In this document: piece by piece, positions 47,219 through 64,000 of the stretch | How positions within the stretch are numbered: position 1 is the stretch's first letter | Layout of the letters: each line of letters opens with the position of its first letter | Source of the DNA: an uncultured Chthonomonadales bacterium | GTDB taxonomy: Bacteria > Armatimonadota > Chthonomonadetes > Chthonomonadales > CAJBBX01 | Assembly (NCBI GenBank): GCA_938005745.1 | Contig: CALLMM010000002.1 | Location: 101,000 to 164,999 of the forward strand | Direction: 5' to 3' | Length of the DNA: 64,000 bases | The notes under the pieces: generated by a model | The model's input: only the letters and a program-made list of their open reading frames with translations | Database searches by the model: none | What the model was told of the DNA's origin: nothing | Program-made: the position numbers and the translations under genes

Positions 47219-47235
47219 GGATGTCGTTACTCTCC

Positions 47236-48629: not shown

Positions 48630-48658
48630 ATTGTAGCAATTTTAACAGGGTGTGTCAA
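48630..48658 (-). promoter_or_regulatory. Near-consensus sigma70-type promoter for the pilM operon
   Basis: The minus strand reads TTGACA (48658-48653), a 17-nt spacer ending in TGc (extended -10), then TACAAT (48635-48630). It lies about 70 nt upstream of the pilM ATG, in the only AT-rich stretch of the region. Confidence 0.6.
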
Positions 48659-48777: not shown

Positions 48778-51700
48778 CTACGGAGCTGCCGTAAGAGGAT
48801 AGAACTGCGGACAGAGAACCGTCGAGTAGAGGTCTACGGTTCCCGCGCGTGTGCTGGACCAGAAGACCCAGACACGATCCGTCAGCGGGTCTTTGAAGGC
48901 GCTGATCTGCCCCTCGTTCACCGCCGCGTCCAGCGGCATGGCGGTCTCATTGGTCGTCTGGTCGCCGGGCTGCAGCGCCACGCTGATCTCATCGCCCCAG
49001 GCGACGCGATAGCGCGTCTCCGGCACCGTCAGCACGTTGCCCTGTGCGTCACGGGCATAGTTGAAGACGACCCGGATGTTGTCGTTGCCTTCGTCCAGCT
49101 CCGTAAAGTAGAGGCGTCCGCGCACCCAGTCCACCTCCACCGGTCCCCGGTTTCCGGCGATCTGGATGTTGCTGCCCAGACTGTACTGACCGGTCTGGGG
49201 GTTGAAGTCGCGCAGTACGCCGCGCGGCAGGCGCACCATCAGGCGCATCGTCTTGTAGTAGATCGTCGCCGCCGAGGTGACGCCCGTCCCCGTCTTGCGA
49301 TAGAACGTCCACATCCGCGTCACCGGAACGATGCCGTTCTGCGGAAGCCCGAGGATATAGGGCGTGCGCGGGTTCGCAGAGCGGTCTATGAAGGCAACCG
49401 CTCCATAGTTCGAGCCTGCCGCCGGGACATGCGGGCGCGCGGCAAAGCCCGCGTCCGTCAGCCAGCCGGAGGGTATCTCGATGGCGCCGGAGTCGTTGCG
49501 CGTGACATTCACCCGCATCGCCTGCGGCGTATAGGTGACAAACAGACCGTCCGAGTTGCGCGGAGCCACATCCGGGAAGGTTACCGTCCCCAGCTGCGGA
49601 TCCACGATCAGTCGTCCGCCCAGCGCCGAGTTGAAGTAGAGCAGCCCGGTCGCGTTGTCGAAGGTCGGGCGTCCCTGCGTCAGCGGCGTGATCACGGAGC
49701 CGTCGGCGCGCCGCAGGCTCAGCGTGTAGGGCGGGTTGCCGTTGGCATCCACAAAGTCGCGCGTGCCCGGATCACGGAACACCCAGCCGATGTCGCGCGA
49801 CATCCAGACCTTCGAGGAGCCGTCGCGCACCATCAGCTCATTCTGCACCGCCGGAAGCGTTGTGACGAACAGCCGCCCGTTGCCTCCCAGCGTGTAGCGG
49901 GTCAGGAAGACCTCCGGCACGCGCCGATTGCGCATGACGCCGGTATAGAACAGGTCTATCGCGTCTATCAACTGTCCGCTCGCGTTGGGGATCAGCCGGC
50001 GAACCGGCAGCGGATCCGAGACCGAGATGAAGACGTTGGAGGTCGGAAGCGGAATGTCGCGCGACCAGTCGGTGACGCTGGTCAAGTCTCCGCCATTCAG
50101 GTTGTAGTAGATTCGCGAACGCCCGCTTGCGCCGCCGTACCAGAACAGGTAGGCGCGCCGCCGTCCGTTCACATCGGTCATCAGCAGCGGCTTCGGCGCG
50201 AACTTGGGCAGCGCGGGGTCGTTGAGGAAGGAGAATGGCACGCCGCCGTTGACCGTCGTATCGGGAGCCAGCGTATTGCGATCCAGCGGCACATAGAACG
50301 TGCGCGTATCAATCGTCGTGCTGCCGCCCTCGCGCTTGGTCACCGCGCCCTGCCAGAAGAGCCACGTGTCCAGATTGTTGACCGGAGCCAGGTCGTCCTG
50401 CGCCAGCGCGGGCGTGGCGTGGCGCACGTCGTAGTACTCTGCCGAGCCGTTGACCGGAAGCGTTACGAGCCGCCCCGGAACCAGCGGCGTATTGGGGTTG
50501 CCCGCCACCTCGGTCTGATTCGCCGGGAACAGTCGGGGCGTCAGTCCGGAGGCGACGCTGGCGTCCGGATACTGCGCGGACGCGCTCAGCGGCATCCACC
50601 AGCGCGTATTGCCCGGCTCAAACCGCCAGTCGAGAACCGTTCCGTTGTTGTTCGCCACCGCGTTCAGCCGCGTGAAGAACAGGGTCCACGGGCTGCCCCA
50701 CAGCGGCTCCGGCGGGCGGTTGTCGTTGAGGCGGTTGCTCGCCCAGAAGAGCGCGATGTGCCCGGTGCGCCGGTCGCGGATCGCCGCCGGAAGCAGGTTC
50801 GCTCCGAAGGCGGGCAGGCTGCCCCGCACATCAATCATCGGGAAGGTGCCGGGAGTCGTTCCGTTGGTCAGGCGCGTCTCGCGCACCGTCACCTTCAGCC
50901 GGAAGGGGTTGGACACCACCGGCTCCACCGGCGATGCGCGTCCGCCGTTGACGGCGATATTCAGGATACCGTCGTCGTCCTGCGCCGCCGCCACCGGACT
51001 GACCGGATTGCCCGTCAACTGCTGATAGGCTGCCAGCCACTGACGCCACGCCGTCGGCGTGAAGTCCTCGAACAGGTAGATCGGCGTGGTGTAGGTTCCG
51101 GCGGGAGTGCCCAGCGGAATGGCGATGCCGATCTTCGGGCGCACTTCGCGCCCCGGCACGCCGTTGCCGCCGGTGGTCAGCGTCCCGAGCACGCCCAGCG
51201 GATCGCCATACGCCACATCCGGGATCGAGAGCACCGTCGGGGCGGCGTCGCCCGGGCGCGCCTTGTGCAGGGTCGGGCGCGGATTGATTCCGGGCGCCCA
51301 CCCCTGACTCACCAGCGGGTTGCCAGCCTGCACATAGGGGTTGCCGCTCGGGAACAGCGCGGCGGGCAGACCCAGGGGCCAGAAGTTCTCGGTGCCGAAT
51401 CGCGCGTTGTAGTTGATCTCGATATCGAAGACATTCGATCCCGAGGCGACCGTGCGACCGTGGTCGAGCGAGGTGACCATGCCCAGATTGCCCACCGCCG
51501 GAAGACCGATCAGGTTAAACGGAACCGTCCAGATCTGCCCGACGCCGGTCAGCGTCTCCACCTGATCGCTGGTCATGCTTCCCCAGAAGCTCGGATCGGA
51601 GATGCTGGAGCCGGGCGCGCCGATCATCTTGGCGACGCGCAGGTTCACCAGGTTGACATTCCCCTCGTTCTTGACGGTGAACGGCGCGAAGAACCGCGTC

Positions 51701-54700
51701 TGTCCCGGCGTATCCCACGGCGAGAGGAAGGCGTTCAGCGGCGAGTTGCCGTTATAGGGTCCCAGGAAGCTGGGCGTGAACGGGATGTTGGGCGAGTAGC
51801 CGGTTGAATGGGGCAGACTGCCCATATCAATCGTCTCCTCTTCCGTGCGCAGACGAACATCCGGCGGGATCGCCACGCCCACATCGAGCTGCCGATAGAC
51901 CTCGTCGCGGCTGACCTGCGCCTGCTGCGCCTCGACCTGCGGCGCATTGCCGGCGAAGCGTCCGTCCCCATTGCTATCTATGTACACCACATAGCTGCCC
52001 ACATATCCGGCGCTCGGCGAGATCAGTCCGCTGATGCCGGGGATGCCGCCCGTTACCGGGTCGGTGCCGGCGGTAACCGCCATGGGAGCCATCAGCCCGT
52101 TGGGAAGTCCGACATTCACCCCGCCGGAGATGTCGAAGTAGATCCGATTGACGTTCGCCGGCTGGAATCTCGGCGCCGTCACCAGCAGATCGAGCGGCAG
52201 CGGATTGAGGGTCTTGACGCCCGTGGTCGTATCCACCGTCGGGCGCGGCAGCGGAATGCCGCGCGTGCTCATATCCACCCCGCCGCCTCGGAAGATGGAG
52301 GCGGTGCGGTCTATGTTCGGGTAGTCCAGCGAGTCGTTGGGCAGGCGGTTGGGGAAGTCTTCCCACGGCAGCGGGTTCATGACGCCCCCCGTCGCCGCGT
52401 AGAGTGCGTTGGTTTCGCCGGGGTTCCATCCCCAGCGCAATTCGCGCCGCTCCACGCGCACGTTGTTGAGCGACTGCCCCAGCTTGTAGAGGCTGCTGCG
52501 ATCGGCGATGAAGAGCGCGGGAACGCGGTTACCGTTGTTATCCACGCCCAGATACGCGCTGCTGCTGCCGTGATTGACCAGTCCGACCGGCGCAACCAGA
52601 TTCTTCTCGCCGGCGACCGTGATGCTGTTGGCAGCGATATTGACGACCCGGTTGCCGTTGGCGAGCACCTCGGTAAAGTCGGTGCCGCCGGTCGTCCAGC
52701 CAATGATATTGCGGAAGTTCGCTCCGACCGGCGTCCCGGCGGGGATGCTGCGGGTCGTCAGAGAGAACGGATGCGCCACAGCGATATTGCGGCGGTTATT
52801 GTTCGGCAGATCGTTGGGATCCTGTCCGGGAGCCGGGTTCGGATTGCCCAGCACCACCGAAGCCTGCCCCGCCGCAAGCTGGAAGGTCGGGAAGGTCGCC
52901 CCGCCCGGCGTCTGGATCTGCGCCTGCGCGAAGACGGTGTAGCGACGTCCGGGAGTCTGCGGATCGGCTTCGCTGCCGCGTCCGAGCGGGAAGGCGTACT
53001 TCGCCACCCAGGGAGTCGCCGGGTCTCCATTGAGGGTCAGGGGCGGACCGGCGTATGCGAGATCGCGCACCGCTCCGACCGTCACCGGCGGGCGGTTGGT
53101 TCCGGCTCCCGTCAGACGGAAGGTAACCTGCGGCAGCACCGGACCGGTATAGACGCCCCACGCCGCCACGTAGATGGTGTCGCCGTACTCATAGATCGTA
53201 AACCCGCCCTGACTGTTGGGCTTGGTGTTGTTGGCGTTCCACTCTGTCCAGGGTGAACGTTGAATCATCGGGTCGTTGGAGCCGAAGCCCTCGTAGGGAC
53301 CGTTCGCCGGGTTGTCCCGCCGCGACTCCCACAGCTCCACCAGCCGCAGATCCACGTTGCCCTGTCCGGCAGGCTGCACATCCGGCTCGTCCGGCGTGAT
53401 CATCCCGATGGTGTCAATCGCATAGGCGCGCATCTGTCCGTTGCGTTCGCCGGTGTCCGGGTTCCCCTCGTCTCCGCTGTAGACCCAGCCGTTGGCGGTG
53501 GTGGCGTCCGCACCCCGGAAGGCGTTGGAGGTCGAGAAGGTCGTCAGGTTGCCGTCGGCGTCTAGCAGCGGCACGCTGCCCACGATGGCGTCCACATAGC
53601 CCCAGAAGAGACGCCCGCCCGTCCGCACGCTCAGTCCGATGATCCCGCCCGTATCCAGAGGCAGCATGATCGCCGGTCCGGCAGCCGACAGGAAGCTCGG
53701 CTGCGGGGTCAGGCTATTGAGGAAGACGGCGGAGGCGCGGGTCGCGCCGAAGGTCCGGCTCTCCCAGAGAACGGAGGGTCCGCCGACCGGGTTGTTGTTG
53801 GGGCTGGCGTCAATCGCAAGGACGCGCCCGTCCTGATTGGCGATGAAGACCACCTCGTTGCCGCCGTTGAAGCCGGAGACCGACTGCCGGTAGGCGGGCG
53901 CGGTGAAGGCGGTATCCTCGCGCGGCTGATCGCCCGGGTTGGGATTGCCGGGCGGCGCGCTGGTGTAGGGATAGGTCCACTGCAGCGTGGCGACGTTATT
54001 CGGACCGCTCCCGCTGCTGCTGATTGCGTAGACGCGCCTTCCGGCGGTGAAGATATACTTGCCGGTCGGCGTCAGCACGCCCGGCTGCACGATCGGGTCG
54101 AGCTGCTGGTTCGGTCCCGGATATTGCCAGAGCGGACGCCCGGCGTTACTCGGGTTGGAGATACGCACGCGCGGATCGAGCGACTGCAGGTCAATCGCGT
54201 AGACGTGCCCGTCTCCGGCTCCCGCGATCACCTGATCGGTGCGGAAGTTGGCGTCCAGTTTGGGCGAGGCGAGCGAGGCGTCGAAGAAGCCCTTCGCCGG
54301 ATCGTCCGGATAGCGGGCGGAGTTATAGGCTCCCGCGCCCCCGTTGATTCCTCCGGCGCGCAGCCACTTGTCGCGTCCCAGCGTGGGCCAGGTCATCACC
54401 CGGAAGGTGGTGCCGGGAATGCCGGGATTGTCGCCCGCCGCCTGCGTCGCCGCATAGGGATCGTTGGTCGCCGGGTCGAATCGTCCGACCGCGTCGAAGG
54501 CGTAGATGCGTCCGTTGCGCGCGCCGATCACGATATACTTCTCGCGCACGCTGCCGCGCGGAACCTCCACATAGATCGGAGACGAGTAGAAGCCTCCCAG
54601 ATCCGGCACCTTTGCGTTGACCGTCCAGATGTCAATCGCGCCCGGTGGCGGGTTCGGGTTGGGTCGCTGCGTCCGCTCCAGATCGCCGTCAATGCCCTGC

Positions 54701-56808
54701 AGCGGCTGGTTGCTCGGCGTTCCCGGCTGGAAGTTGGGATCGTCCTGCGGATTGACGTTGACGTTGATCCCGTTGACGCCGGTCGCCGGATTGCCCAGCG
54801 AGGGATAGGTCCAGTAGACGGTGGTCTGCGTGCTGTCGGGACCGGCGCCGAGCGCGTCGAGCGCCCAGAGACGTCCCTCCGTCGTCGCGAAGTAGACCAC
54901 CGGTCGGGTCGTTCCGGAGGGCCACTGCACGTTGGCGATCAGGGGAGCCGCCACCACGCTGCTCGGAAGCTGCGACTCCGGCACAAACTGCAGGGCGTCC
55001 GCCGCCACGATCCGCCCGTTGGCGGCGTCCAGGGTCGAGTAGTTGTAGAGCGTTACCTGCCCGAGCGCCGGCACGTTATTGCCGTTGTAGACGCCCGCGC
55101 CGAAGCGGATGCCTCCGGTCAGCAGGCGCCAGGTTCCGACTCGCGGGCGTCCCGGGATCGTGTTATCGGTGTTGCGCTGATCGAGAACCACATCCAGCGG
55201 TCCGCGATCCGTCAGAATGCGATAGATCGCGTTGCGCGCATACTCCGGCTGTCCGTCCTGCCCTCCCGGGATCCAGACGTAGATCGAGTAGGTCAGGCTT
55301 GCGCTGAGCGGCTGCTCCCAGCGCGCATAGGGAGGCTCCGGATCACCGGGATTGGTCGGCGGCGGGGTCGTACCCTGCGCGGGAGCCGCGTAGTAGGTGG
55401 AGCCGAACGCCTGCTCCTGCGTGCTCTGCGGCGCGACGATCTGCGTGAAGCCGGGCGTCATTCCGGCAGGCGGCGTAAAGGTGAAGGCGGGCGTTCCCGC
55501 AAGATCGTCCACAGTGGTGGTTTGCAGCGGCGTAGCGGCGACCCGGCGCCAGCGCAGCCGGGAGAACCGTCCGTTGTTGAAATCGTCCTCGATGCAGTAG
55601 AAGACGGCGTTGCGCACGCTGCGGGTTGGGTCGGCGACCAGCGGGTTATAGTTGGCTCCGCTCACCGTCGGCTGAACCGGCAGGGTCGGGTTCAGGGGCA
55701 TGGTGGCGAAACCGCCGACCAGCGGACCGGGATTGCCTAGCGTCGGGAAGAGGTTGCGCGGACCGGTCGTCTCGTCGCGGGCGAAGAAGGTCAACTGCAC
55801 CGCGCCGGGATCGGTGATCTGCGAGCCGGACGGGAAGACGGCGCTGGCTGCCGGCGCGCGAATATCTCCGCGCAGCGCCTCAGGAACCAGCCGGACGGCG
55901 TCCGCGGCGATGACCGGGTCGTCCAGGAACAGGTTGCGATCCCCCACCGCGTCGGGTGTGATGCCGTAGAGCGTCACGCGGATCGGGTTCGTGCCGTCGT
56001 AGGGGAAGAAGCGGTCGTCGTCCTTATCGGTGCGGATCCGCTTCCAGAAGCCGCCGGTTCCGCCCGCCTCAATCATGAAGATGCGGCTGCGGATCGGGTC
56101 GTTGATGTCCGCACCCCAGCTGACGCGCACCATATAGTGGTCGGCGTTGGGGCGCGGTCCCGCCGTTCCCCGCGTTCCGCTGTTGGGGATATTGATATAG
56201 ATGGCGTAGCGCTGATTGGCAGCCAGCGGCTGCCCGCTCACGTCGCGCCGTCCCTGGAAGGTTCCCGCCGGGTACTGTCCGCCGAAGCTCCAGACCACCC
56301 GATCCAGCGTAACGGCGAGCAGCTCGTTATGCACGGCGCGATAGACTTCCGGCGTTACGTTGGGCAGCGCTTTCAGCGTCGGTATGCCGATATTCGCCAG
56401 GGTCTGACTCTGGATCGCGTTGGTGTAGACGTAGTCGCCTACCTTCTCGGGATCGCTGTCGCTGGGGGGCCAGGCGCCGGAGGCGCGCTGATCCGACGTG
56501 GGGCGCACCCACGTTCCGATAACCTGGAAATCCTGCCCGGTCGGCGTCGGTCCGGGGGGCGGCAGCGCGGTGTTGTCCACCACGATCTCCGCCGGCAGGT
56601 CGCGCGTGGGGGGCCAGACCCATGTCCGACTCAACTGCTGTCCCGGATTCAGTCCCGGGTCCTCATTGCTACCCTGGCGCGAGGGCGCGCCGCGATGCAT
56701 TAGCCAGTCGCTATCGCGGAAGGGCAGCTGCGCCAGTGCGACTGCCCCCGACGCCATCCACAGCGTCAGCACGCCGAAAACTATTAGCAGCGCTCGTTTA
56801 TGCCACAT
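48778..56808 (-). CDS. Giant secreted protein (2676 aa) with PQQ-like beta-propeller repeats
   Basis: Signal peptide MWHKRALLIVFGVLTLWMASGAVALAQ. WLMHRGAPSRQG plus recurring blade motifs GRLWALDALG, GRIYAFDAVG, GHVYAIDLQS, RRVYAISSSG and GRVLAIDASP. Later there are recurring ...LFW.. / ..VFWSS.R.G..DLY motifs. Confidence 0.8.
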   Translation of the reverse strand: MWHKRALLIVFGVLTLWMASGAVALAQLPFRDSDWLMHRGAPSRQGSNEDPGLNPGQQLSRTWVWPPTRDLPAEIVVDNTALPPPGPTPTGQDFQVIGTWVRPTSDQRASGAWPPSDSDPEKVGDYVYTNAIQSQTLANIGIPTLKALPNVTPEVYRAVHNELLAVTLDRVVWSFGGQYPAGTFQGRRDVSGQPLAANQRYAIYINIPNSGTRGTAGPRPNADHYMVRVSWGADINDPIRSRIFMIEAGGTGGFWKRIRTDKDDDRFFPYDGTNPIRVTLYGITPDAVGDRNLFLDDPVIAADAVRLVPEALRGDIRAPAASAVFPSGSQITDPGAVQLTFFARDETTGPRNLFPTLGNPGPLVGGFATMPLNPTLPVQPTVSGANYNPLVADPTRSVRNAVFYCIEDDFNNGRFSRLRWRRVAATPLQTTTVDDLAGTPAFTFTPPAGMTPGFTQIVAPQSTQEQAFGSTYYAAPAQGTTPPPTNPGDPEPPYARWEQPLSASLTYSIYVWIPGGQDGQPEYARNAIYRILTDRGPLDVVLDQRNTDNTIPGRPRVGTWRLLTGGIRFGAGVYNGNNVPALGQVTLYNYSTLDAANGRIVAADALQFVPESQLPSSVVAAPLIANVQWPSGTTRPVVYFATTEGRLWALDALGAGPDSTQTTVYWTYPSLGNPATGVNGINVNVNPQDDPNFQPGTPSNQPLQGIDGDLERTQRPNPNPPPGAIDIWTVNAKVPDLGGFYSSPIYVEVPRGSVREKYIVIGARNGRIYAFDAVGRFDPATNDPYAATQAAGDNPGIPGTTFRVMTWPTLGRDKWLRAGGINGGAGAYNSARYPDDPAKGFFDASLASPKLDANFRTDQVIAGAGDGHVYAIDLQSLDPRVRISNPSNAGRPLWQYPGPNQQLDPIVQPGVLTPTGKYIFTAGRRVYAISSSGSGPNNVATLQWTYPYTSAPPGNPNPGDQPREDTAFTAPAYRQSVSGFNGGNEVVFIANQDGRVLAIDASPNNNPVGGPSVLWESRTFGATRASAVFLNSLTPQPSFLSAAGPAIMLPLDTGGIIGLSVRTGGRLFWGYVDAIVGSVPLLDADGNLTTFSTSNAFRGADATTANGWVYSGDEGNPDTGERNGQMRAYAIDTIGMITPDEPDVQPAGQGNVDLRLVELWESRRDNPANGPYEGFGSNDPMIQRSPWTEWNANNTKPNSQGGFTIYEYGDTIYVAAWGVYTGPVLPQVTFRLTGAGTNRPPVTVGAVRDLAYAGPPLTLNGDPATPWVAKYAFPLGRGSEADPQTPGRRYTVFAQAQIQTPGGATFPTFQLAAGQASVVLGNPNPAPGQDPNDLPNNNRRNIAVAHPFSLTTRSIPAGTPVGANFRNIIGWTTGGTDFTEVLANGNRVVNIAANSITVAGEKNLVAPVGLVNHGSSSAYLGVDNNGNRVPALFIADRSSLYKLGQSLNNVRVERRELRWGWNPGETNALYAATGGVMNPLPWEDFPNRLPNDSLDYPNIDRTASIFRGGGVDMSTRGIPLPRPTVDTTTGVKTLNPLPLDLLVTAPRFQPANVNRIYFDISGGVNVGLPNGLMAPMAVTAGTDPVTGGIPGISGLISPSAGYVGSYVVYIDSNGDGRFAGNAPQVEAQQAQVSRDEVYRQLDVGVAIPPDVRLRTEEETIDMGSLPHSTGYSPNIPFTPSFLGPYNGNSPLNAFLSPWDTPGQTRFFAPFTVKNEGNVNLVNLRVAKMIGAPGSSISDPSFWGSMTSDQVETLTGVGQIWTVPFNLIGLPAVGNLGMVTSLDHGRTVASGSNVFDIEINYNARFGTENFWPLGLPAALFPSGNPYVQAGNPLVSQGWAPGINPRPTLHKARPGDAAPTVLSIPDVAYGDPLGVLGTLTTGGNGVPGREVRPKIGIAIPLGTPAGTYTTPIYLFEDFTPTAWRQWLAAYQQLTGNPVSPVAAAQDDDGILNIAVNGGRASPVEPVVSNPFRLKVTVRETRLTNGTTPGTFPMIDVRGSLPAFGANLLPAAIRDRRTGHIALFWASNRLNDNRPPEPLWGSPWTLFFTRLNAVANNNGTVLDWRFEPGNTRWWMPLSASAQYPDASVASGLTPRLFPANQTEVAGNPNTPLVPGRLVTLPVNGSAEYYDVRHATPALAQDDLAPVNNLDTWLFWQGAVTKREGGSTTIDTRTFYVPLDRNTLAPDTTVNGGVPFSFLNDPALPKFAPKPLLMTDVNGRRRAYLFWYGGASGRSRIYYNLNGGDLTSVTDWSRDIPLPTSNVFISVSDPLPVRRLIPNASGQLIDAIDLFYTGVMRNRRVPEVFLTRYTLGGNGRLFVTTLPAVQNELMVRDGSSKVWMSRDIGWVFRDPGTRDFVDANGNPPYTLSLRRADGSVITPLTQGRPTFDNATGLLYFNSALGGRLIVDPQLGTVTFPDVAPRNSDGLFVTYTPQAMRVNVTRNDSGAIEIPSGWLTDAGFAARPHVPAAGSNYGAVAFIDRSANPRTPYILGLPQNGIVPVTRMWTFYRKTGTGVTSAATIYYKTMRLMVRLPRGVLRDFNPQTGQYSLGSNIQIAGNRGPVEVDWVRGRLYFTELDEGNDNIRVVFNYARDAQGNVLTVPETRYRVAWGDEISVALQPGDQTTNETAMPLDAAVNEGQISAFKDPLTDRVWVFWSSTRAGTVDLYSTVLCPQFYPLTAAP

Positions 56809-56870
56809 GCGTGTATCACCTTAACAGGTCGGGTCCGGGCGGAGGATCGCTCCTCCGCCGGCTCCACTCC

Positions 56871-59800
56871 TTAGAACGGACGATCAGCAAACGCCGGCTG
56901 TTCCAGCAGCGACGTGGAGGTTGCGCGGGAACGATCCAGCGGACCGATGAAGCGGCGGAAGAAGCCGCCGAACAGCGTCTCGCGCGGCGTTCTCCAGACG
57001 ATGCTCGCGTTGGGATTGGGGATCAGGAAGTTGCCTCCCGGATCGGGCAGTCCCAGCGCGTTGGCGCGGATATAGTCCGGCTGATAGCCCCGCCCCGGCA
57101 GCCGGAGATCGAAGGTGGCGGGATTCAGTTCGAACACCTCGCCGCGAAACTCGCTGGTTCCCGCCACATTGCCGTTCGCCGGATTGTTGACGAACGTGAT
57201 GCCGAAGACGCGCGGATTATCCTCGCCGGTGAACCGGTTGGTGATCAGGAAGCGGCGCAGCGCGGGCGTGAAGGCGTTGGGCGTATTCCCCGCCGAGGTC
57301 GCCAGACGCCGGATGCTCGCCGCGTTCAGCCGCTTGCCGGTCATCAGGAAGTAGTCTTCCGACGTCAGCATCCACTCGACGTTTAGCACGGGAATCGGGG
57401 TGTTATTCGGTCCTATCGCCACGCCCGGCGACAGCTGATAGCAGCCGTTGGCATCGCTCAAGAGGTACTTAAAGACCACCTGCGGCTGCCCGTTCACCAC
57501 CACGACCTCATCAAACTTCGAGAACCAGGTCGGGTTGACAATCGGCTGAATGCGGAAACCGTTGGGATTGCCTGCGGTCGGTGTCGGGATGCGCAGGTTG
57601 CCGACAATGGTCAGGGGCGTCCCCTGCTCATTGAGCAGCACCAGCGAGCCGCCGCCCGTCTCCGCCACATCGCCAAAGGTGTTGATCTGCTGTCCCGCCA
57701 CCTGCGGGCTGCCGATCAGCTTGAAGTTGGAGATGGAAGCCATCGTCAGGCGCACGAGATCGTCGGGTCCCTTGGAGGCGTCCTGCCACTCCGCCGGCAG
57801 ATCGCGGTTGCGCATCAGGATACGCTCCACCGTCCGGTAGCGGTAACGCTTCCCCTCGTTGCTGTAGGTGGAGCTGGCGAAGTTCAACTGCCGCAGCATG
57901 ACGAAGGGCCAGGGCTGCGCGGTGTGCCGTCCGATGGGCGCGCCGTTGGCGCTGTAGACATCCACCAGTTCGATGACCCGGAAGTTACCCGAGTCGGCGA
58001 TCAGATAGTGAACGATATAGCCCGGTCCGTTGTAGACGTAGTTCTGATTGTTGAACGCAACATTGATGTTGAGGTTCGGCAGGAACTCCGTCCAGTATGA
58101 GATGTCGGTCGGCTCGTTGAGGGTGAGCGGATCGCCGGGGCGCAGCAGCCGCTTGAAGTCGTCAAACAGCCGGTTGACCTCCCAGACGATGTTGCCGCCG
58201 CGATCTATCTGCACGATGCGGTTGTTGCCCGTATCCACCACCAGCAGGTCGTTGATGCCGATGCGCCGCGCGACGGTCGGGCGGGCAAACGGCACATTCT
58301 TCACCGCCGCGACGCCCGTTGCGTTTGCCGGATTGTCCAGGACGATGTCGCCGTTCGGATCGCCGATGTAGCGGGGCAGGTCACCGCCCGCGATGCCGTA
58401 GGAGCGCGTGCCCTCCGAGACCCAGACCGCTTCGCCCGCCGCGTTCACCTCGATTAGCCGCTTGTTGTCGGCGATGATGGTGAAGGTATCCTCGAAGGCA
58501 GAGGCTCCGTTGAGCGTGTTGGCGACCAGCACGTTGGCGGTTGCGACCGGCGCGTTGAGGATCGCTCCGACGTTCCCGCCCGCCAGCGGGTTGGCGACGC
58601 GGGAGACCCAGCGCAGGTGGCGGGTCGTCCCGTCATCGTTGAACAGCCGCACCTGACTGCCCATCGCCTGCGCCTCCGGGTCGGTCGAAGCGGGGTCTAC
58701 GTTCATCGAGGCGATGAACCCGAACTGCGTCCCCAGCCACATGATGTCGCCCTGTATGGAGGGGGACGAGGAGACGAAGCCCGGATTGCCGATATTGACG
58801 GGCAGCGCCGCTGGCAGTACCGCGTACCACAGCAGGTTATCCACGCCATTGGGACCGATCAGCCGCGACTCCGTGAAGGTCGCGCTGTTGGGGTCGGCGG
58901 GATTCTGACGTATGGTGTCCACCTTTGTCCCGGCAACCAGGATCTCCTCACCCGTGCCGATCTGCACCACGAACGGCATAGAGGCACTCACGTAGTTGGC
59001 GGTTCCTCCGCGCGGAGCCATCGCGGTGATGCGGATCAAGCCGTTCTGATAGTCCACGGTGTACTGCTGCGGGTTCAGTTCGACCCAGGCGGGAGCGGCG
59101 GCGGTCTGCGAGTTGGCGGCGTTGACCTGCCGAATGCGCACCGGAGTTCCCGTCGTGATCTGCTGCCGCAGGCGCAGAACGATCTCCGGGTTCGCCTTGA
59201 ACGCCATCACCAGCGAGACCGGGATGCCGCCCGCCTCCAGCAGACCCCGCGCCGTGACATAGACGTTTCCGTCCTTGTAGGCAGGCGTCCCGAAGAACTG
59301 CACATTCAGAATGTAGCTGCCGTATCCGGGCAGCGAGGGGTCCAGTTGCCGCAGGCGCGGCGGGATCGTTACGGCAGCCCCGTTGACGGTGATCTGCAAG
59401 CCGTTATGCATGGCATACGCCCACTTCAGCGAGGTCTGCCCGGCGTTCTGCTCATTGACCCCGAACAGCACGCCCCGTCCCTGGATGCCCAATCCCGCTG
59501 GGCTGGTATCCGCCGTGAAGAAGACCATTTCGTCCGACGCCAGCGACGGCGCGCCCCCGACCCGGTTGCCGGAACTGGTTACGTCCGGGATATTGAGCAC
59601 CGAGCGGGCGTTGACCTTCGGACCGGTGAAGCCGATCGGCGGAGACCAGTTGAGGGTGTAGTCCGCGTAGAGGGTCAGATCGCCGTCGTTGACCGGAACG
59701 GTGGGTCCGCCGGAGAACTCCACGTTGGCGGAGGTGATAACCTGCACCGGCTGGTTCGCCGCTTGCGTGACGGAAAACTCGTTCTGTCCGGGCGTTCCCG

Positions 59801-61997
59801 CCGCATTAAAGCGCAGTTCCAGCGACCAGATGACGCCGGTCGCCGGGTCGCGATAGCGCGCAAATACCCGCGGTCGCAGCTCGATGTTTTCGTCGGCATT
59901 GACGGGCATGAACCAGGGGATCAGGGAGCGCGAACGGAAGTTGTTGCCGCCCGCCGGAACCAGCGGCTCCCCCTTTGTCCCGAACCAGAAGCCGCGCACC
60001 GAGGCGGGCGCGTTGCCCACGCCGCCTGCGCCGCCCGCCACATAGACATAGACCATCTTATCCATCGCGCCGGTGGCGTTGTCGCGCACGTAGCCGACGG
60101 TCGGCGTGCTCAACATGGAGCCGGTTCCCACCGCATCCGGCACGGCGGTTCGGTCGAAGGTCTCGCCGGAGTAGCCCAGCGGTCCCGGTCGGAAGAGGCT
60201 GCGACCGCCGCGCGGGTCTACCGTCACCAGACGCCCCCCGCTGGGAGTGTTCAGGCTGATAAACAGGACGCCCTCCGACCAGGCGGGAGCCGGGATCGGC
60301 AGGTCCTTGCCCGAGTCGGGGTTGGGCGCGCCGCCGGTGTTATGCGGCGAGTTGTCTATGCCGTAGTCGGTTCCCAGACCGGTCAGGACCCAGTCCACCG
60401 CCGTAACCGGAGCCAGAGGCAGACCCGGTGCGTTGGCGCGCGGCAGCGCGCGCAGCGCGGCGACTGTGCCGTCTGAGAGGGTAACGACCACCAGCTCCCG
60501 CTGATTGAAGTTCACCAATCCGTTGGGAACCGGCTGACTGGCAAAGTTGGGATCGTAGAACTCGATGATGGTCGGCGCGGAGGCTCCGGTTGCGTTCGGG
60601 GAGAGGGTCTTCAGATCGAACCGCCAGATCTCATCGAAGGAGGCTCCGGCAATAAAGTCCGGGATCCCCTCGTCCGCGTTGCCGTCTCCGTCCAGGTCCT
60701 CGCCGGGATTGGCGTTGTAGCAGCGCAGGATCAGATCGCCGTCCACCACAAAGACGCAGCGGCGGAACAGAGCCGCGCCGCCGACCTTGCGCGCGCCGGC
60801 GCCGGGCGGAGGCGGAGACGCCCACTTCTCCGTCAGCACCGCGCCGATCTTCTCGACCGTGCTGCCGTCGCGGCGCAGATTGGTCTGCGCGGTGGTATGC
60901 GAACCCGTCCAGGAGGCGAGGTTATAGGCGAACTTCAGGTCGGGAGGACGCGCCGCGATCAGGGTCTCGCCGCTGATGGCGCCGGTGTTGGACCCCCAGC
61001 CGACGTTGACGCCCCCGACATAGTTATTGATGGCGTCGCCGGAGTCCTGGCAGGAGAAGACGATCCGTCCCGCGCCCACCTGCCCGGCAAGAATGTAGGG
61101 TCTCCAGCCGGGATTGGGCGTTACCTGATTGATGGGAGCCAGTCCCCGCGAGTTCCAGACGATCGGAACCAGCGTATGGCGGGCGGGAGGATTGAGTGCG
61201 TCGGATCCCGCGACGTTGTCAAACTGGGTCGGATCGCCGGGATTGGTATACGGATTGAAGACGTAGTAGCCGTTGACGCCCTTGTCGCCGAAGGACTGAA
61301 GCTCCTGCGGCGAGAGGACGTAGGGATAGTTGAGCAGCGGATGATTGGTCGCCGCGATCACCGCGCCGGCGTTGGGATTGGGACCGTTGCTGAACTGCAC
61401 GTCGAACAGAAACGGCGCGCGCGGATCGAAGCTCATCCGTCCGGAGTTCTCCACCCACAGCGTCCCGCCCCCGTCTATGAACCGTCGCAGTTTCGCAAGC
61501 TGCTCCGCCGTGAACCGGGCGTTCGCCTTGTGCGAATGGATGTAGAGCAGATCGAACTGCTGCAGATCCTCTGCGCTCAGGTTATCCAGGTTGACCTCCC
61601 AGTACGCCCCCATGTTCTTGGTCACGCGCGCTCCGATTTGGAACACCTGAAACTGGGGCGTGCCGGGAACGAATGCCGGATCGCTGTTGGGGATACGCAC
61701 GCGGTTGCGCCACCGCTGATAGACATCGGCGGTGATGACGGTCGGCGCGAGCGGATTGACGAACTCCATCCCGAACGGCTTCAGATCGGTGCGGGAGTCC
61801 AGGATATAGAAGATATGCGTTCCGGTATTCTCAGGACCGAAGTTGCCCTCGTTGAGCGCGCTGCAAACCAGCACGCCCGCCCGCACCAGACGACGCTGCG
61901 TCGAGTAGGTGCTGGAGTCGGCGACGACTCGTGCGGGCAGCAGAACCGAACTGAGCAGAATGCCCAGAACTACACTGAGGATCAAACGATTTCTCAT
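56871..61997 (-). CDS. Giant secreted protein (1708 aa): DUF4159-like N-terminal domain plus beta-propeller (PQQ-like and NHL-like) repeats
   Basis: Start ATG 61995-61997 (MRNRLILSVVLGILLSSVLLPARVVA). FDLLYIHSHKANARFTAEQLAKLRRFIDGGGTLWVENSG...ATNHPLLNYPYVL resembles the DUF4159 pattern. NHL-like motifs LLVVDTGNNRIVQIDRGGNIVWEV and YLIADSGNFRVIELVD. The protein ends in ...FADRPF. Confidence 0.8.
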   Translation of the reverse strand: MRNRLILSVVLGILLSSVLLPARVVADSSTYSTQRRLVRAGVLVCSALNEGNFGPENTGTHIFYILDSRTDLKPFGMEFVNPLAPTVITADVYQRWRNRVRIPNSDPAFVPGTPQFQVFQIGARVTKNMGAYWEVNLDNLSAEDLQQFDLLYIHSHKANARFTAEQLAKLRRFIDGGGTLWVENSGRMSFDPRAPFLFDVQFSNGPNPNAGAVIAATNHPLLNYPYVLSPQELQSFGDKGVNGYYVFNPYTNPGDPTQFDNVAGSDALNPPARHTLVPIVWNSRGLAPINQVTPNPGWRPYILAGQVGAGRIVFSCQDSGDAINNYVGGVNVGWGSNTGAISGETLIAARPPDLKFAYNLASWTGSHTTAQTNLRRDGSTVEKIGAVLTEKWASPPPPGAGARKVGGAALFRRCVFVVDGDLILRCYNANPGEDLDGDGNADEGIPDFIAGASFDEIWRFDLKTLSPNATGASAPTIIEFYDPNFASQPVPNGLVNFNQRELVVVTLSDGTVAALRALPRANAPGLPLAPVTAVDWVLTGLGTDYGIDNSPHNTGGAPNPDSGKDLPIPAPAWSEGVLFISLNTPSGGRLVTVDPRGGRSLFRPGPLGYSGETFDRTAVPDAVGTGSMLSTPTVGYVRDNATGAMDKMVYVYVAGGAGGVGNAPASVRGFWFGTKGEPLVPAGGNNFRSRSLIPWFMPVNADENIELRPRVFARYRDPATGVIWSLELRFNAAGTPGQNEFSVTQAANQPVQVITSANVEFSGGPTVPVNDGDLTLYADYTLNWSPPIGFTGPKVNARSVLNIPDVTSSGNRVGGAPSLASDEMVFFTADTSPAGLGIQGRGVLFGVNEQNAGQTSLKWAYAMHNGLQITVNGAAVTIPPRLRQLDPSLPGYGSYILNVQFFGTPAYKDGNVYVTARGLLEAGGIPVSLVMAFKANPEIVLRLRQQITTGTPVRIRQVNAANSQTAAAPAWVELNPQQYTVDYQNGLIRITAMAPRGGTANYVSASMPFVVQIGTGEEILVAGTKVDTIRQNPADPNSATFTESRLIGPNGVDNLLWYAVLPAALPVNIGNPGFVSSSPSIQGDIMWLGTQFGFIASMNVDPASTDPEAQAMGSQVRLFNDDGTTRHLRWVSRVANPLAGGNVGAILNAPVATANVLVANTLNGASAFEDTFTIIADNKRLIEVNAAGEAVWVSEGTRSYGIAGGDLPRYIGDPNGDIVLDNPANATGVAAVKNVPFARPTVARRIGINDLLVVDTGNNRIVQIDRGGNIVWEVNRLFDDFKRLLRPGDPLTLNEPTDISYWTEFLPNLNINVAFNNQNYVYNGPGYIVHYLIADSGNFRVIELVDVYSANGAPIGRHTAQPWPFVMLRQLNFASSTYSNEGKRYRYRTVERILMRNRDLPAEWQDASKGPDDLVRLTMASISNFKLIGSPQVAGQQINTFGDVAETGGGSLVLLNEQGTPLTIVGNLRIPTPTAGNPNGFRIQPIVNPTWFSKFDEVVVVNGQPQVVFKYLLSDANGCYQLSPGVAIGPNNTPIPVLNVEWMLTSEDYFLMTGKRLNAASIRRLATSAGNTPNAFTPALRRFLITNRFTGEDNPRVFGITFVNNPANGNVAGTSEFRGEVFELNPATFDLRLPGRGYQPDYIRANALGLPDPGGNFLIPNPNASIVWRTPRETLFGGFFRRFIGPLDRSRATSTSLLEQPAFADRPF

Positions 61998-62095
61998 AGC
62001 CAGATTACCTGATGGGTGGAGTAAACGCAGAAGATGGGTAAATGAGCGCTTTTCCGTTTGAATGCTGCACATCTACCCATCTCCCCCTTCTCCTG

Positions 62096-64000
62096 TTAGC
62101 GAACTTCGCCAAAGAAAACGAATCCTGGACTGACGGGCAGTCGGGGGACGGGCGGCAGAATGCGACCGTGATCATCCTGCCGATACGGCTGTCCGTTATC
62201 CGGGTTATAGCCGGCATAGGGCGCGTAGAGAGACGGATCATACAGGAAGCGCAGCCCCCGCGTGAGTCCGATATTCTGTCCGTAGTAGTTGCGCTCGCTG
62301 GGCGCGCGCAGATCGCTGGAGCTGCCGCCCAGTTCATCAATGTTGATGTGGGCGGTCGGGATGCGCCGCGTTCGGTTCGGATCGGTGGGATACATGCCGG
62401 TAGAGCCGTAGATCTCCGGCATATAGCCCCACAGCTGCATCCAGGCGGCTTGCTGCGCGATGGAAGCCGTTCGATTCTCCGCGATCGCCCCGACAATCGT
62501 GATCCGGCAGTTGATCGGCTCTCCGTAGAACGGCATGAAGTCGGAGGTTCCCGGCGGACGCACGGAGGCGTCGGGATCCAGGTTCGGCAGCGCGGCGCGG
62601 CGCAGCGCCGCATCCCGCGTATCGTTCTTATCCCAATTGAACGGATAGCCAGGAATGATGAAGAACGAGCCGTTCTGCGCGTACATCACCGCTTCGATCC
62701 GCACGTCCATCGGCACGACGGCGGCGCGCATGAAGTCGTAGTTGAGCGTTCCGCTGGTCCCGGTGAAGGTCGGCTCGACCGCAAACCGCAGGGTGTTGCG
62801 GCTGCCCGGCTGTGTGAAGAAGTTGTACTGGGCGTTATTGATCTGCGGGAACAGCTGCATCTGGAACTGCTCGACATACGACTGCTGCTGCTGATTACCG
62901 ATGACCGGGCTGGCAACCACGTAGACCGAAGGCGGCAGGTTCTGCGGATCGTAGGGTCCGACGTTGGTGTTGAACCGGTAGAGCGCATCGCCGCCGGACG
63001 CGGAGGGCGTCGCCTCGTTGACAAACAGGTTCAGATAGGTGATCTGGTTCTGCGCCGGAGCCGCATGCTGAACCAGCAGCTGCAGCGGAACCTGATTGTT
63101 CTGCGCGTCGCGGTACTGCGTTACATCCTCCGCAAACAGCATGTCGAAGGTGAGCGGCGGCGTGGCGGCGTTCTCCGCCGTGCTGATGCTGTAGTAGGGG
63201 CGGTCGCCCCCGATCAGTCCGACCGGCTCCAGCGGCTTATTCGGAGAGAGGAACATCGTGGTGTTGAGGACCACGTACTCCTTCGCCAGCAGCGCGATCA
63301 TCGAACTCGGCGCTTCGCGAACCAGGCTGCCCTCGATGTAGATGTTGCGGTCCGAGACCACCGTCACCGACGGCGGGTTGACGCGCTGACGGATCTCCTG
63401 ATCGGTCAGGTTGTCCGGGTCGCCCTGCTGGCGCCGGATCGGAATATTCGTCAAACCCGGCAGCAGTCCGCGCGTGCGGATATTGCCCTCCGCAAAGATC
63501 ACCCCGTTGAAGGCGGGCAGGACGCGGTCAATCTCGCGCTCGGAGAGGTTCTGCGCGTTGCGCAGATAGGTGCGGAAGTACTCGTTCTCCAGCTTCAGCA
63601 CCGGGCGCAGTCCCGACGGCTTGTAGATGAAGAAGGAGTAGGTCATCACCGTCGGGGTGATCACGCCGTTGGGATCCACGAACTGCTGGTTGCTGTCTAC
63701 GCCTCGCTTGATGGTGATGCCGGGGCGCGCCTCATACTGACCGGGCACGATCTCGCTGTTGGAGTCGCGGGCGGGCACGACGGGATAGCCGAACTCGATG
63801 GTGACGGCGGGCGGGATATAGAAGGTTCCCTTCCAGGTCGCCGTGCTGCCGGGCTTCAGCCAGACCGACGGCAGCGACTGACCGCCGTTGACCGCCAGGG
63901 TCTCCTGCTCGATGTCGTTGCGGTTGTTCAGGTAGATGCCCGCGCCCAGACCGATCCGCCCGGTGTTGAAGGCGTTGGGTCCCGTGCCGAACCAGAGTCC
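62096..64000 (-). CDS. C-terminal 634 aa of a further large secreted protein (N-terminus beyond window)
   Basis: The track ORF begins at a GTG at 63778. Manual translation of 63779-64000 in the same frame has no stop, so the frame is open to the window edge. No assignable motif. Confidence 0.7.
   Translation of the reverse strand, partial: GLWFGTGPNAFNTGRIGLGAGIYLNNRNDIEQETLAVNGGQSLPSVWLKPGSTATWKGTFYIPPAVTIEFGYPVVPARDSNSEIVPGQYEARPGITIKRGVDSNQQFVDPNGVITPTVMTYSFFIYKPSGLRPVLKLENEYFRTYLRNAQNLSEREIDRVLPAFNGVIFAEGNIRTRGLLPGLTNIPIRRQQGDPDNLTDQEIRQRVNPPSVTVVSDRNIYIEGSLVREAPSSMIALLAKEYVVLNTTMFLSPNKPLEPVGLIGGDRPYYSISTAENAATPPLTFDMLFAEDVTQYRDAQNNQVPLQLLVQHAAPAQNQITYLNLFVNEATPSASGGDALYRFNTNVGPYDPQNLPPSVYVVASPVIGNQQQQSYVEQFQMQLFPQINNAQYNFFTQPGSRNTLRFAVEPTFTGTSGTLNYDFMRAAVVPMDVRIEAVMYAQNGSFFIIPGYPFNWDKNDTRDAALRRAALPNLDPDASVRPPGTSDFMPFYGEPINCRITIVGAIAENRTASIAQQAAWMQLWGYMPEIYGSTGMYPTDPNRTRRIPTAHINIDELGGSSSDLRAPSERNYYGQNIGLTRGLRFLYDPSLYAPYAGYNPDNGQPYRQDDHGRILPPVPRLPVSPGFVFFGEVR

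Follow-up and report, generated by a model that had tools for sequence, protein, structure and literature searches.

Two giant beta-propeller proteins in the PilY1 slot of the Armatimonadota type IVa pilus operon as candidate PilY1 analogues

The closest described counterparts of the locus analysed here are the pilus tip operons of P. aeruginosa, Neisseria and M. xanthus, which encode a quartet of minor pilins (FimU, PilV, PilW and a PilX type that lacks Glu5) followed by a large, Sec-exported beta-propeller protein, PilY1 or PilC (PMC7541494, PMC8833165). The studied systems have their tip-protein genes behind pilX in the minor-pilin operon, PilY1 pairs a variable N-terminus with a conserved C-terminus, and loss of Glu5 is a hallmark of both PilX and GspK, the cap pseudopilin of type II secretion (PMC7541494). 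The calcium motif of PilY1 follows the consensus Dx[DN]xDGxxD (PMC8833165). Thermus ComZ, a tip pilin that resembles GspK and carries a beta-solenoid insertion (PMC6561018), provides a further point of comparison.

The window, by which we mean the entire 64,000-nucleotide stretch of Chthonomonadales DNA that was analysed, shares this operon logic. As reported in a preliminary description, three open reading frames lie on one strand with spacers of 98 and 62 nt; we refer to the first, which is partial, as X994 and to the two complete ones as Y and Z. The genes and transcription signals are as follows.

62096-64000, minus strand: partial X994 gene, 634 aa, frame open to the window edge (base 64000)
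56871-61997, minus strand: Y, complete open reading frame, 1708 aa
48778-56808, minus strand: Z, complete open reading frame, 2676 aa
48749-48772, minus strand: terminator-like hairpin (10 pairs, 9 GC) 6 nt past the stop codon of Z, followed by a T-rich tail
48630-48658, minus strand: sigma-70-like promoter (TTGACA, 17 nt, TG-TACAAT; 11/12 matches) ahead of pilM
41968-48561, minus strand: downstream pilus assembly genes (Pfam and NCBIfam), namely the six below
47236-48561, minus strand: pilM (PilM_2, E=2e-58)
46400-47218, minus strand: PilN-like gene, weak match (E=0.19), assigned mainly by position
45520-46386, minus strand: PilO-like gene, weak match (T2SSM, E=0.006), assigned mainly by position
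44717-45487, minus strand: open reading frame of 256 aa
44046-44606, minus strand: 186-aa STN/N0 secretin-N protein (Pfam/NCBIfam)
41968-43737, minus strand: short secretin pilQ, 589 aa (Pfam/NCBIfam)

Y and Z are genuine genes, with hundreds of homologues and, for Y residues 380-1160, an AlphaFold2 model of pLDDT 91.8. An alternative in-frame ATG of Y at 62072 has a better Shine-Dalgarno sequence and would yield a 1733-aa protein and an X994-Y spacer of 23 nt. No terminator is predicted between X994, Y and Z. The earlier placement of these genes directly upstream of a pilus-assembly operon is correct as to position, but the GC hairpin and the promoter are predicted to divide Z from pilM, and pilMNOPQ appears to be separately promoted. 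Other genes of the window specify a tricorn-like PD40 protease and a Laminin_G/beta-helix protein.

Sequence past the window edge was taken from a 99%-identical relative (locus L002) and from other Armatimonadota loci. In L002, the stretch immediately 5' of Y and Z holds PilC, PilD, three pilins of the N_methyl type and the whole 994-aa gene, and two further loci (L076 and L077) also carry PilB (MshEN and T2SSE) and PilT upstream. The extension supplies minor pilins, pilB/pilC/pilT and the N-terminus of the third protein, and reveals pilins, not a separate, self-contained operon. In full, the genes run as pilB-pilT-pilC-pilD, then those of a 300-aa pilin and of 606-aa PilV-like, 641-aa PilW-like and 994-aa PilX/GspK-like proteins, followed by Y, Z and pilMNOPQ. 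This order is identical wherever the contig is long enough (phmmer and BLASTP synteny across 73 genome loci of Chthonomonadales, Armatimonadaceae, Fimbriimonadales and Capsulimonadaceae); in a closed 6.1-Mb genome it can be followed from the pilin genes by way of Y as far as a downstream gene of 3276+ aa, and both the order and its short spacers are retained over the distance that separates Chthonomonadales from Capsulimonadaceae and Fimbriimonadales (25-30% protein identity). The link between the large genes and the pilus is conserved in related genomes and much stronger than the window itself reveals: essentially every Armatimonadota locus of sufficient length has this supercluster order. 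The locus is the distal part of a type IVa pilus (T4aP) minor-pilin operon that the phylum Armatimonadota retains as a constant feature. Y and Z occupy the PilY1 slot inside a complete T4aP supercluster, where they come right behind a FimU/PilV/PilW/PilX-ordered set of four minor pilins.

The 300-, 606- and 641-aa proteins have G/FTLIE-type leaders with Glu5; the 606-aa protein matches PilV (TIGR02523, E=6e-9), and the 300-aa first pilin matches both GspG and PilA. The partial window protein, previously counted as one of three giant propeller proteins, proves to be the C-terminal 634 aa of the 994-aa minor pilin. The leader of the X994 family (...RRG/Q[ST]L[IV]VA...) is prepilin-like, with a conserved Gly and no Glu5; NCBIfam T2SS_GspK matches 6 of 40 relatives (best E=4.8e-4), Pfam PilX_N one and a FapA beta-solenoid two. 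Because the leader lacks Glu5, as in GspK, and relatives match GspK, if weakly, X994 is by sequence assigned as a GspK/PilX-type cap minor pilin. It resembles ComZ in its very large non-pilin insertion, with the FapA-type solenoid in those two relatives, and, as with ComZ, its bulk probably rules out any place other than the tip. X994 is larger than ComZ (554 aa), and its body has no match in PDB or Pfam. All four pilin-like partners (300-994 aa) are oversized compared with the PilY1 system, being about 2-5 times as large as the corresponding Pseudomonas proteins.

Y and Z begin with Sec-type (type I) signal peptides (...LLPARVVA/DSS and ...SGAVALA/QLP, respectively) and have neither a Cys lipobox nor a G/FTLIE motif, in agreement with the preliminary description, and no membrane anchor was found in either. 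Domain scans and segmental AlphaFold models place propeller folds in both proteins, and the features within them are as follows.

61311-61583, minus strand: DUF4159/GIFT-like (class I glutamine-amidotransferase-like) core, Y residues 139-229 (Pfam and family profile)
60672-60698, minus strand: DLDGDGNAD, Y residues 434-442, which fits the EF-hand-like calcium motif of PilY1 (Dx[DN]xDGxxD) exactly
58518-60860, minus strand: all-beta propeller region, Y residues 380-1160 (AlphaFold2 pLDDT 91.8, pTM 0.92)
57120-58247, minus strand: NHL-type propeller blades, Y residues 1251-1626 (LLVVDTGNNRIV ... GEVFELNP; family profile, relatives, motifs)
53413-54876, minus strand: PQQ-type propeller, Z residues 645-1132, six blade motifs G-x-hydrophobic-[YW]-A-hydrophobic-D/S
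48781-52371, minus strand: Z residues 1480-2676, inside the phylum-conserved half (AlphaFold2 pLDDT 77, pTM 0.79)

From its N-terminus, Y comprises the DUF4159/GIFT domain, the calcium-motif loop, a BamB/PQQ-type propeller with insertions, the NHL propeller and a tail with a conserved LEQPxFADRPF. Its length and architecture are kept across hundreds of clusters, and the DUF4159 domain, the calcium loop and the NHL propeller are conserved phylum-wide. The combination of DUF4159-, PQQ- and NHL-like parts suggested earlier holds at the family level, where Pfam DUF4159 matches 25, PQQ_2 nine and NHL eight of 29 relatives, but the window protein taken alone scores 25.8 bits for DUF4159 against a cut-off of 25.9. 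The family profile further matches the IFT52 GIFT domain (E=0.007) and the NHL propellers 'Pizza' and Brat (E=1e-5), and the model of residues 380-1160 has DDB1, BamB and PQQ alcohol dehydrogenases as its top Foldseek matches (E=3e-7 to 1e-5). BamB-like and NHL propellers would suit a periplasmic scaffold equally well. We came across no published account of DUF4159 associated with pili, nor of the Y and Z proteins.

The Dx[DN]xDGxxD motif recurs at the same position in 145 of 234 full-length Y family members, and its loop is modelled confidently between strands E44-49 and E77-82 (AlphaFold2); the motif was not found in Z. We regard it as no more than a supportive PilY1-like trait of the Y sequence, because DxDxDG loops are widespread among calcium-binding beta-propellers.

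Z consists of two Golvesin_C-like modules (present in 10 of 15 relatives), a PQQ propeller and a beta-sandwich-like middle, followed by a C-terminal half that contains a propeller of sialidase/GH43-like fold. Where at least five PQQ-like blade motifs had been noted we count six; matches of the family profile include PQQ-type 'Cake' propellers (E=1e-21) and 3hxj (6e-7), and 8 of 15 relatives have PQQ_2. BLASTP similarity between Z and the giant downstream gene of Armatimonadaceae and Capsulimonadaceae is limited to residues ~1250-2670: the C-terminal half is kept phylum-wide, and the N-terminal half, which in Chthonomonadales consists of the Golvesin_C-like modules and the PQQ propeller, is exchanged between families. 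At loci without phmmer similarity to Z, a signal-peptide gene of 1,700-3,300 aa still follows Y. The fold of part of the C-terminal half is shared with the five- and six-bladed propellers of GH43, GH33 sialidase, PL24 and GH32 (E from 3e-5 to 1e-3 in Foldseek, with probabilities reaching 1.0), but in a moderately confident model and at 8-12% identity and TM-scores of 0.2-0.44 (normalised by target length). Sequence-based domain searches detected neither glycoside-hydrolase nor lyase families and assigned no unrelated function; the polysaccharide lyases named earlier as a check are approached only at the level of fold. Such a fold is typical of carbohydrate-active enzymes and compatible with secreted cargo.

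We looked for homology to PilY1 and detected none. The PilY1/PilC domain (PF05567) was not found in Y, Z or relatives by Pfam at E<=0.1, the two family profiles matched no PilY1 chain in PDB at E<=10, and PilY1 was not among the best 50 Foldseek matches of either model. 'PilY1-analogous' is therefore the strongest permissible term, and the original reading of these proteins as PilY1-like adhesins retains the slot after pilX and the shared traits, but neither protein is recognisably related to PilY1. Those traits are the type I signal peptides of both proteins, the calcium loop of Y, the variable N-terminus and conserved C-terminus of Z, and the adjoining T4aP machine including PilT. Unlike PilY1, there are two proteins totalling 4,384 aa; their propellers are of the PQQ/BamB, NHL and sialidase/GH43-like types; and Y has DUF4159/GIFT rather than vWA as its N-terminal module, here the conserved instead of the variable part of the protein. 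The propellers of Y and the central propeller of Z match BamB, PQQ-dependent dehydrogenases and NHL-repeat proteins in fold or repeat type, but Y and Z are multi-domain giants in a pilus operon and lack a lipobox, and nothing indicates enzymatic PQQ chemistry.

Based on these comparisons, we favour, with somewhat better than even confidence, the proposal that Y and Z are non-homologous PilY1 analogues which, with the oversized minor pilins, would make up a priming/tip complex of ~0.75 MDa, probably one that binds glycans. It is also conceivable, if unlikely, that Y and/or Z are secreted cargo, driven through the secretin by a pseudopilus-like fibre with a GspK-like cap, as in type II secretion, and thereafter free or surface-bound carbohydrate-binding or -degrading exoproteins, not stable tip parts. 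Cultured Chthonomonas is a saccharolytic specialist, and the GspK matches of X994 relatives, the GspG match of the first pilin, the GH43/GH33/PL24/GH32-like fold and Golvesin_C-like modules of Z, and the description of PilY1 as 'an analog of T2SS substrates' (PMC7541494) all point in this direction. The machine, however, is of the T4aP type, with PilM_2, a PilT retraction ATPase and a PilB with an MshEN domain; no GspC/L-type match occurs among the window's assembly genes, where the PilO-like protein gives the weak T2SSM match. Type II substrates, moreover, normally lack the phylum-wide strict synteny to pseudopilins that Y and Z have, and the resemblance of Z to carbohydrate-active enzymes is confined to the distant fold matches described above.

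Improbable as well, in our estimation, is that Y and Z stay in the cell as lineage-specific periplasmic or outer-membrane parts of the pilus machine, such as an alignment, gating or secretin-assembly scaffold. The central propeller of Y is closest to BamB, an outer-membrane assembly scaffold, and DDB1, a scaffolding multi-propeller; the constancy of Y would be expected of a machine part, and the short secretin with its separate STN/N0 protein could imply a need for extra periplasmic components. Against this, Y and Z are encoded in the minor-pilin transcription unit, set apart from pilMNOPQ by terminator and promoter, and lack a lipobox and membrane anchor; exchange of the Z N-terminal half is typical of exposed ligand-binding parts, not machine cores; and the slot after pilX encodes tip proteins in studied systems (PMC7541494). 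That the adjacency is purely historical, Y and Z being ordinary cell-surface proteins functionally unlinked to the pilus, is highly improbable because, common as large propeller proteins are in Armatimonadota genomes, the same order survives divergence to 25-30% protein identity.

For the tip complex that we favour, we envisage a mechanism modelled on the priming complex that minor pilins and PilY1 form in Myxococcus and Pseudomonas. In the inner membrane, the four pilin-like proteins would nucleate the fibre, X994 being its cap, and Y and Z, exported to the periplasm by Sec, would both dock on this cap. Riding on the first pilus subunits, the resulting complex of ~6,900 residues would then be pushed out via PilQ and remain at the tip; this would require so large an assembly to pass the secretin. 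By analogy with PilY1 we infer the physical association of Y and Z with the pilus, their location at its tip, calcium binding and a ligand. Y may act as a calcium-dependent adaptor, and Z would be the outermost, ligand-binding part, with glycans as its most plausible ligand.

The gene truncated at the window edge, which encodes the minor-pilin-like protein X994, is followed on the same strand by the two complete genes for the giant proteins that we call Y and Z:

62096-64000, reverse strand: partial ORF of X994, 634 codons, frame open at the window edge
56871-61997, reverse strand: ORF of Y, 1708 aa
48778-56808, reverse strand: ORF of Z, 2676 aa

The ORF coordinates confirm the spacers of 98 nt (X994-Y) and 62 nt (Y-Z) given in the preliminary description. 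An in-frame ATG at 62072, with GGAGAAGGGGGAG before it, would make Y 1733 aa long and shorten the X994-Y spacer to 23 nt. Within that spacer (61998-62095, reverse strand; 9917-10000 in L002, a 99%-identical metagenomic contig that extends beyond the window edge), this upstream in-frame ATG has a strong Shine-Dalgarno sequence, and another ATG, at 62080, is out of frame in the window and in L002 heads a long ORF through Y. The choice between 1708 and 1733 aa for Y is therefore uncertain. The Y-Z spacer contains a perfect 9-bp GC-rich hairpin, GGCGGAGGA-GCGA-TCCTCCGCC (56838-56859, reverse strand), without a T-run after it, which may act in mRNA processing or stability or may set the Y:Z expression ratio. 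No tRNA or Rfam features were found in the 64-kb window.

That Y and Z are real genes rather than high-GC artefacts follows from their homologue clusters (148 for Y at E<=1e-3 and 43 for Z; the Y propeller profile matches 478 clusters at 50% identity in a library of 1.84 billion proteins) and from the confident fold of Y, whose residues 380-1160 are modelled by AlphaFold2 with a pLDDT of 91.8 and a pTM of 0.92. Both proteins had been described as having signal-peptide-like N-termini without a prepilin motif, and judged by eye from the N-terminal sequence these are Sec-type (type I) signal peptides; a prepilin motif is indeed absent from both. Lipoprotein status was rejected, as neither signal peptide contains a Cys.

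Extension upstream of the window edge, which the preliminary description had suggested as a search for minor pilins, pilB, pilC or pilT, was possible through L002 and yielded the pilins, pilC and pilD:

L002 gene 1: pilC (T2SSF)
L002 gene 2: pilD (A24 peptidase)
L002 gene 3: 300-aa pilin, leader GFTLIELL
L002 gene 4: 606-aa pilin-like protein, leader GVSLIEVL; PilV TIGR02523, E=6e-9
L002 gene 5: 641-aa pilin-like protein, leader GFTLVELL
L002 genes 6-10: X994, Y, Z, pilM and pilN, in that order

In a related Chthonomonadales genome, pilB (MshEN and T2SSE) and pilT precede pilC. Downstream of Z, the window contains pilM (PilM_2, E=2e-58), PilN-like and PilO-like genes (both weak matches), a 186-aa STN/N0 protein, the secretin gene pilQ (Secretin, E=8e-32), aroC and aroB; PilP was not identified among these assembly genes. 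Taken over the window and its relatives, the assembly genes, including PilM and PilQ, together with PilB and the retraction ATPase PilT, mark the system as type IVa rather than T2SS. Six nucleotides past the Z stop codon lies a 10-bp hairpin that has 9 GC pairs and is followed by a T-rich tail, and about 90 nt beyond it, ahead of pilM, is an 11/12 match to a sigma-70 promoter with an extended -10 TG (48630-48658). The genes are therefore likely to form two units, one running from the pilin genes through X994, Y and Z and the other comprising pilMNOPQ and the genes that follow. This split mirrors that of Pseudomonas, in which fimU-pilVWXY1 and pilMNOPQ are separate operons.

Several further features of the window deserve mention. 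The secretin seems to be in two pieces: a gene some 300 nt upstream of pilQ (41968-43737, reverse strand) encodes the separate 186-aa STN/N0 protein (44046-44606, reverse strand), which matches the N-terminus of PilQ TIGR02515 (E=2e-13), and PilQ itself is short, at 589 aa, and has its own STN domain. A 256-aa ORF (44717-45487, reverse strand) occupies the expected pilP position between the PilO-like and secretin genes; it gave no PilP match, the best being DUF6153 (E=0.014). Chorismate synthase (aroC) and a 546-aa aroB follow pilQ (38914-41847, reverse strand), so that the pilMNOPQ-aro linkage known from proteobacteria reappears in a distant phylum; the first ~245 residues of the aroB product have no strong Pfam match, only a weak one to Fe-ADH (E=0.007). 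Elsewhere, the gene for a DUF5693 protein (E=7e-139) precedes that for a CsaB-like polysaccharide pyruvyl transferase (13402-16660, forward strand), an enzyme type usually tied to the pyruvylated cell-wall polymers that anchor SLH-domain proteins. A 380-aa protein (26794-27936, reverse strand) resembles bacterial archaeo-eukaryotic release factors (baeRF family 3, E=4e-42), and two long ORFs (16657-19716, 1019 aa, and 29751-31742, 663 aa, both forward strand) have no Pfam match at E<=1e-4.

The truncated gene had been taken for a third propeller protein, a reading that the upstream DNA overturns: in L002 it encodes a 994-aa protein with a prepilin-like leader, ...RRSGRERG|QSLAVAVIVLFVLLFIGG..., which lies outside the window and was read from L002 and P0164. 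Among 40 aligned relatives the leader has the consensus ...RRG|Q[ST]L[IV]VA[LIV]..., with Gly at -1; G27, Q28, L30 and A33 hardly vary, and at position +5 the sampled N-termini have Val or Ala, never Glu. X994 thus combines a class III (prepilin) leader, a hydrophobic alpha-1 helix and the absence of Glu5, as expected of a cap pilin of the GspK/PilX type; the cap subunits of the minor-pilin and pseudopilin complexes, PilX and GspK, are marked out by having lost Glu5 (PMC7541494). NCBIfam T2SS_GspK matches 6 of the 40 relatives (best E=4.8e-4), Pfam PilX_N matches one weakly (E=0.046), and two have matches to a FapA-type beta-solenoid. The GspK and solenoid matches recall ComZ of Thermus, a tip pilin that resembles GspK and carries an inserted solenoid (PMC6561018). 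The X994 family profile had no match in the PDB, and NCBIfam searches with X994, Y and Z themselves returned nothing.

Linkage of the giant genes to pil genes proved to be conserved. A locus scan run with a 12-sequence alignment found 73 loci among 185,579 species genomes, all in Armatimonadota except for one in a Sericytochromatia MAG, where the match is weak and partial. Synteny was followed on the loci with thirteen cluster proteins (phmmer and BLASTP), and the order PilC-PilD-pilin(s)-606-641-994-Y-Z-PilM-PilN-PilO, in which the numbers are the lengths in aa of the pilin-like proteins, was recovered wherever the contig is long enough, down to 23-30% identity, in four lineages: Chthonomonadales, Armatimonadaceae, Fimbriimonadales and Capsulimonadaceae. 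The arrangement recurs in a closed 6.1-Mb genome over the stretch that starts with two pilin genes, includes Y (1741 aa) and ends with a gene for at least 3276 aa. At the Sericytochromatia locus, a 1189-aa ORF (2283-5852) is Y-like in the NHL region only (phmmer E=3e-10), and phmmer found no homologue of the window's pilus-cluster proteins beside it.

The combination of DUF4159-like, PQQ-like and NHL-like regions read from the sequence of Y holds at the level of the family. DUF4159 (PF13709) is borderline in Y of the window (25.8 bits against a cut-off of 25.9), where it is the sole Pfam match, and it is found in 25 of 29 relatives (best E=1e-9); PQQ_2 matches 9 of the 29 and the NHL repeat (PF01436) 8. 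Compared with the PDB, the Y family profile matches the GIFT domain of IFT52 (E=0.007) and the NHL propellers 'Pizza' and Brat (E=1e-5 to 3e-3). In a Foldseek search, the best 50 matches to the model of residues 380-1160 are DDB1, BamB and PQQ (alcohol) dehydrogenases (E=3e-7 to 1e-5). Residues 1-480 (DUF4159 and a loop) and 1130-1625 (the NHL propeller) are kept across relatives; the middle propeller region is variable. The most conserved short stretch of Y is its C-terminal tail, LEQPxFADRPF (residues 1698-1708; 56874-56906, reverse strand), with P1701 and R1706 invariant among the 29 relatives. We recognised no known motif in this tail, which could be a docking strand or a sorting signal.

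In Z, where at least five PQQ-like blades had been counted, residues 645-1132 contain six G-x-hydrophobic-[YW]-A-hydrophobic-D/S blade motifs, and the family supports their type: the Z profile matches PQQ-type 'Cake' propellers (E=1e-21) and 3hxj (E=6e-7) in the PDB, and PQQ_2 and Golvesin_C are found in 8 and 10 of 15 relatives, respectively. Pfam gave nothing credible for Z of the window alone, PQQ-like matches (PF13360/PF13570) were absent from window Y and Z at E<=0.1, and in the PDB phmmer found no match to either protein. The C-terminal model of Z (residues 1480-2676, pLDDT 77) resembles the propellers of GH43, GH33 sialidases/trans-sialidases, PL24 and GH32 (Foldseek, E=3e-5 to 1e-3, 8-12% identity), a resemblance at the fold level only, as no glycoside hydrolase, sialidase or polysaccharide lyase family was matched by sequence in Pfam or NCBIfam. 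Where phmmer finds no Z, a signal-peptide ORF of 1,700-3,300 aa still follows Y, and its BLASTP similarity is confined to Z residues ~1250-2670; the C-terminal half of Z is therefore the phylum-wide core, and the N-terminal half, consisting of Golvesin_C-like modules and the PQQ propeller, is exchangeable. Paralogy of Y and Z was considered and dropped: when their propeller regions were compared with hhalign, the probability was only 47% over 100 columns, a level of similarity generic to blades.

The preliminary description proposed that these proteins might be PilY1-analogous adhesins or cargo. Members of the PilY1/PilC family (PF05567) have a C-terminal PilY1 domain that is a modified beta-propeller (PDB 3HX6), and where type IVa systems with PilY1 have been studied, it acts as tip adhesin, priming factor and surface sensor; it is found in pili or at their tip, and pili need it in order to form. 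PilY1 is encoded with the minor pilins, downstream of the Glu5-less pilX (PMC7541494), and carries, on a surface loop of its propeller, an EF-hand-like calcium motif with the consensus Dx[DN]xDGxxD (PMC8833165). Y and Z resemble it in having a Sec signal peptide and an operon slot after a Glu5-less pilX-type gene, Z further in its variable N-terminus and conserved C-terminus, and Y in the sequence DLDGDGNAD (residues 434-442), an exact match to the calcium consensus. This sequence lies in a confidently modelled loop that separates two strands of the AlphaFold2 propeller, and the motif is present at this position in 145 of 234 full-length Y relatives; it is absent from Z. The motif is not specific to PilY1, and the site in Y is best called a putative calcium site. 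No homology to PilY1 was detected: PF05567 had no match at E<=0.1 in Y, Z, the 29 Y relatives or the 15 Z relatives, the family profiles found no PilY1 chain in the PDB at E<=10, and no PilY1 entry was among the best 50 Foldseek matches for either model (Y 380-1160, Z 1480-2676). Nor could the Y-profile search bridge to PilY1, because the matches listed (150 of the 478 clusters) belong to the Y family itself, nearly all with the same full-length architecture. Because the defining PilY1 domain was not found, we do not file Y and Z as members of that family; at most, they work like PilY1.

We propose that the four pilin-like proteins would form a priming stem capped by the Glu5-less X994. Sec would carry Y and Z to the periplasm, where both would dock on the X994 cap, and polymerisation of the fibre by PilB would then carry them through PilQ to the tip; retraction by PilT would pull whatever they hold. 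Y may serve as a conserved adaptor, probably calcium-dependent. The conserved C-terminal half of Z would be its anchor and the swappable N-terminal half its ligand-binding end; the ligand is probably a glycan, to judge from the Golvesin_C-like modules and from a propeller fold like that of carbohydrate enzymes. The six products (four pilin-like proteins, Y and Z) sum to ~6,900 residues, or ~0.75 MDa.

It is also conceivable, if unlikely, that Y and Z are glycan-active cargo exported in the manner of a T2SS, as the GspK-like cap and the CAZyme-like fold would fit; the machine, however, is of the PilT/PilM type and the synteny extends across the phylum. We give slightly less credence still to a periplasmic or outer-membrane scaffold of the pilus machine, which would account for the BamB-like and DDB1-like folds and the uniform architecture of Y, but not for the position of the genes within the transcription unit of the minor pilins, the absence of an anchor or the exchangeable half of Z. 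Fortuitous adjacency to the pilus genes is excluded in practice by an order conserved at 25-30% identity. Within the tip proposal, the boldest version is improbable: a ~0.75 MDa machine free of any PilY1 homologue, in which Y, an adaptor with its calcium loop, DUF4159 and NHL propeller, holds the modular Z, the exchangeable N-terminal half of Z binds polysaccharide and its conserved sialidase/GH43-like propeller is catalytically active. Were this grab-and-cut version true, a retractile pilus that binds and cuts glycans would be a harpoon for polysaccharide foraging, and the passage of so large a complex through a secretin would call for an explanation.

Modules of this type, in which T4aP minor pilins are paired with a tip protein, are already known. 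What is new is what this one is made of and how large every part is: it has a cap pilin of 994 aa, a DUF4159/GIFT module and two giant propeller proteins that are not PilY1. A full-text literature search found no paper on DUF4159 except a Pfam release note and nothing in which the pili of Armatimonadota are connected with PilY1-like or giant tip proteins; nor did it reveal a DUF4159-like domain joined to propellers in a pilus context, in agreement with the initial impression that this combination had not been described. Because cultured species exist, the idea is directly testable. Our data suggest that, throughout a phylum, the operon slot of PilY1 is taken by two giant, unrelated multi-propeller proteins, and that every one of the minor pilins is oversized. 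Should Y and Z be located at the tip, the cap formed by the minor pilins would serve as a docking platform in general, able to carry very different, very large passengers, and these pili would provide a natural test of the size limit of the PilQ secretin for folded complexes. Such a location would also place DUF4159 in a functional context for the first time and would indicate glycan binding as the job of pili in this poorly studied, saccharolytic phylum.
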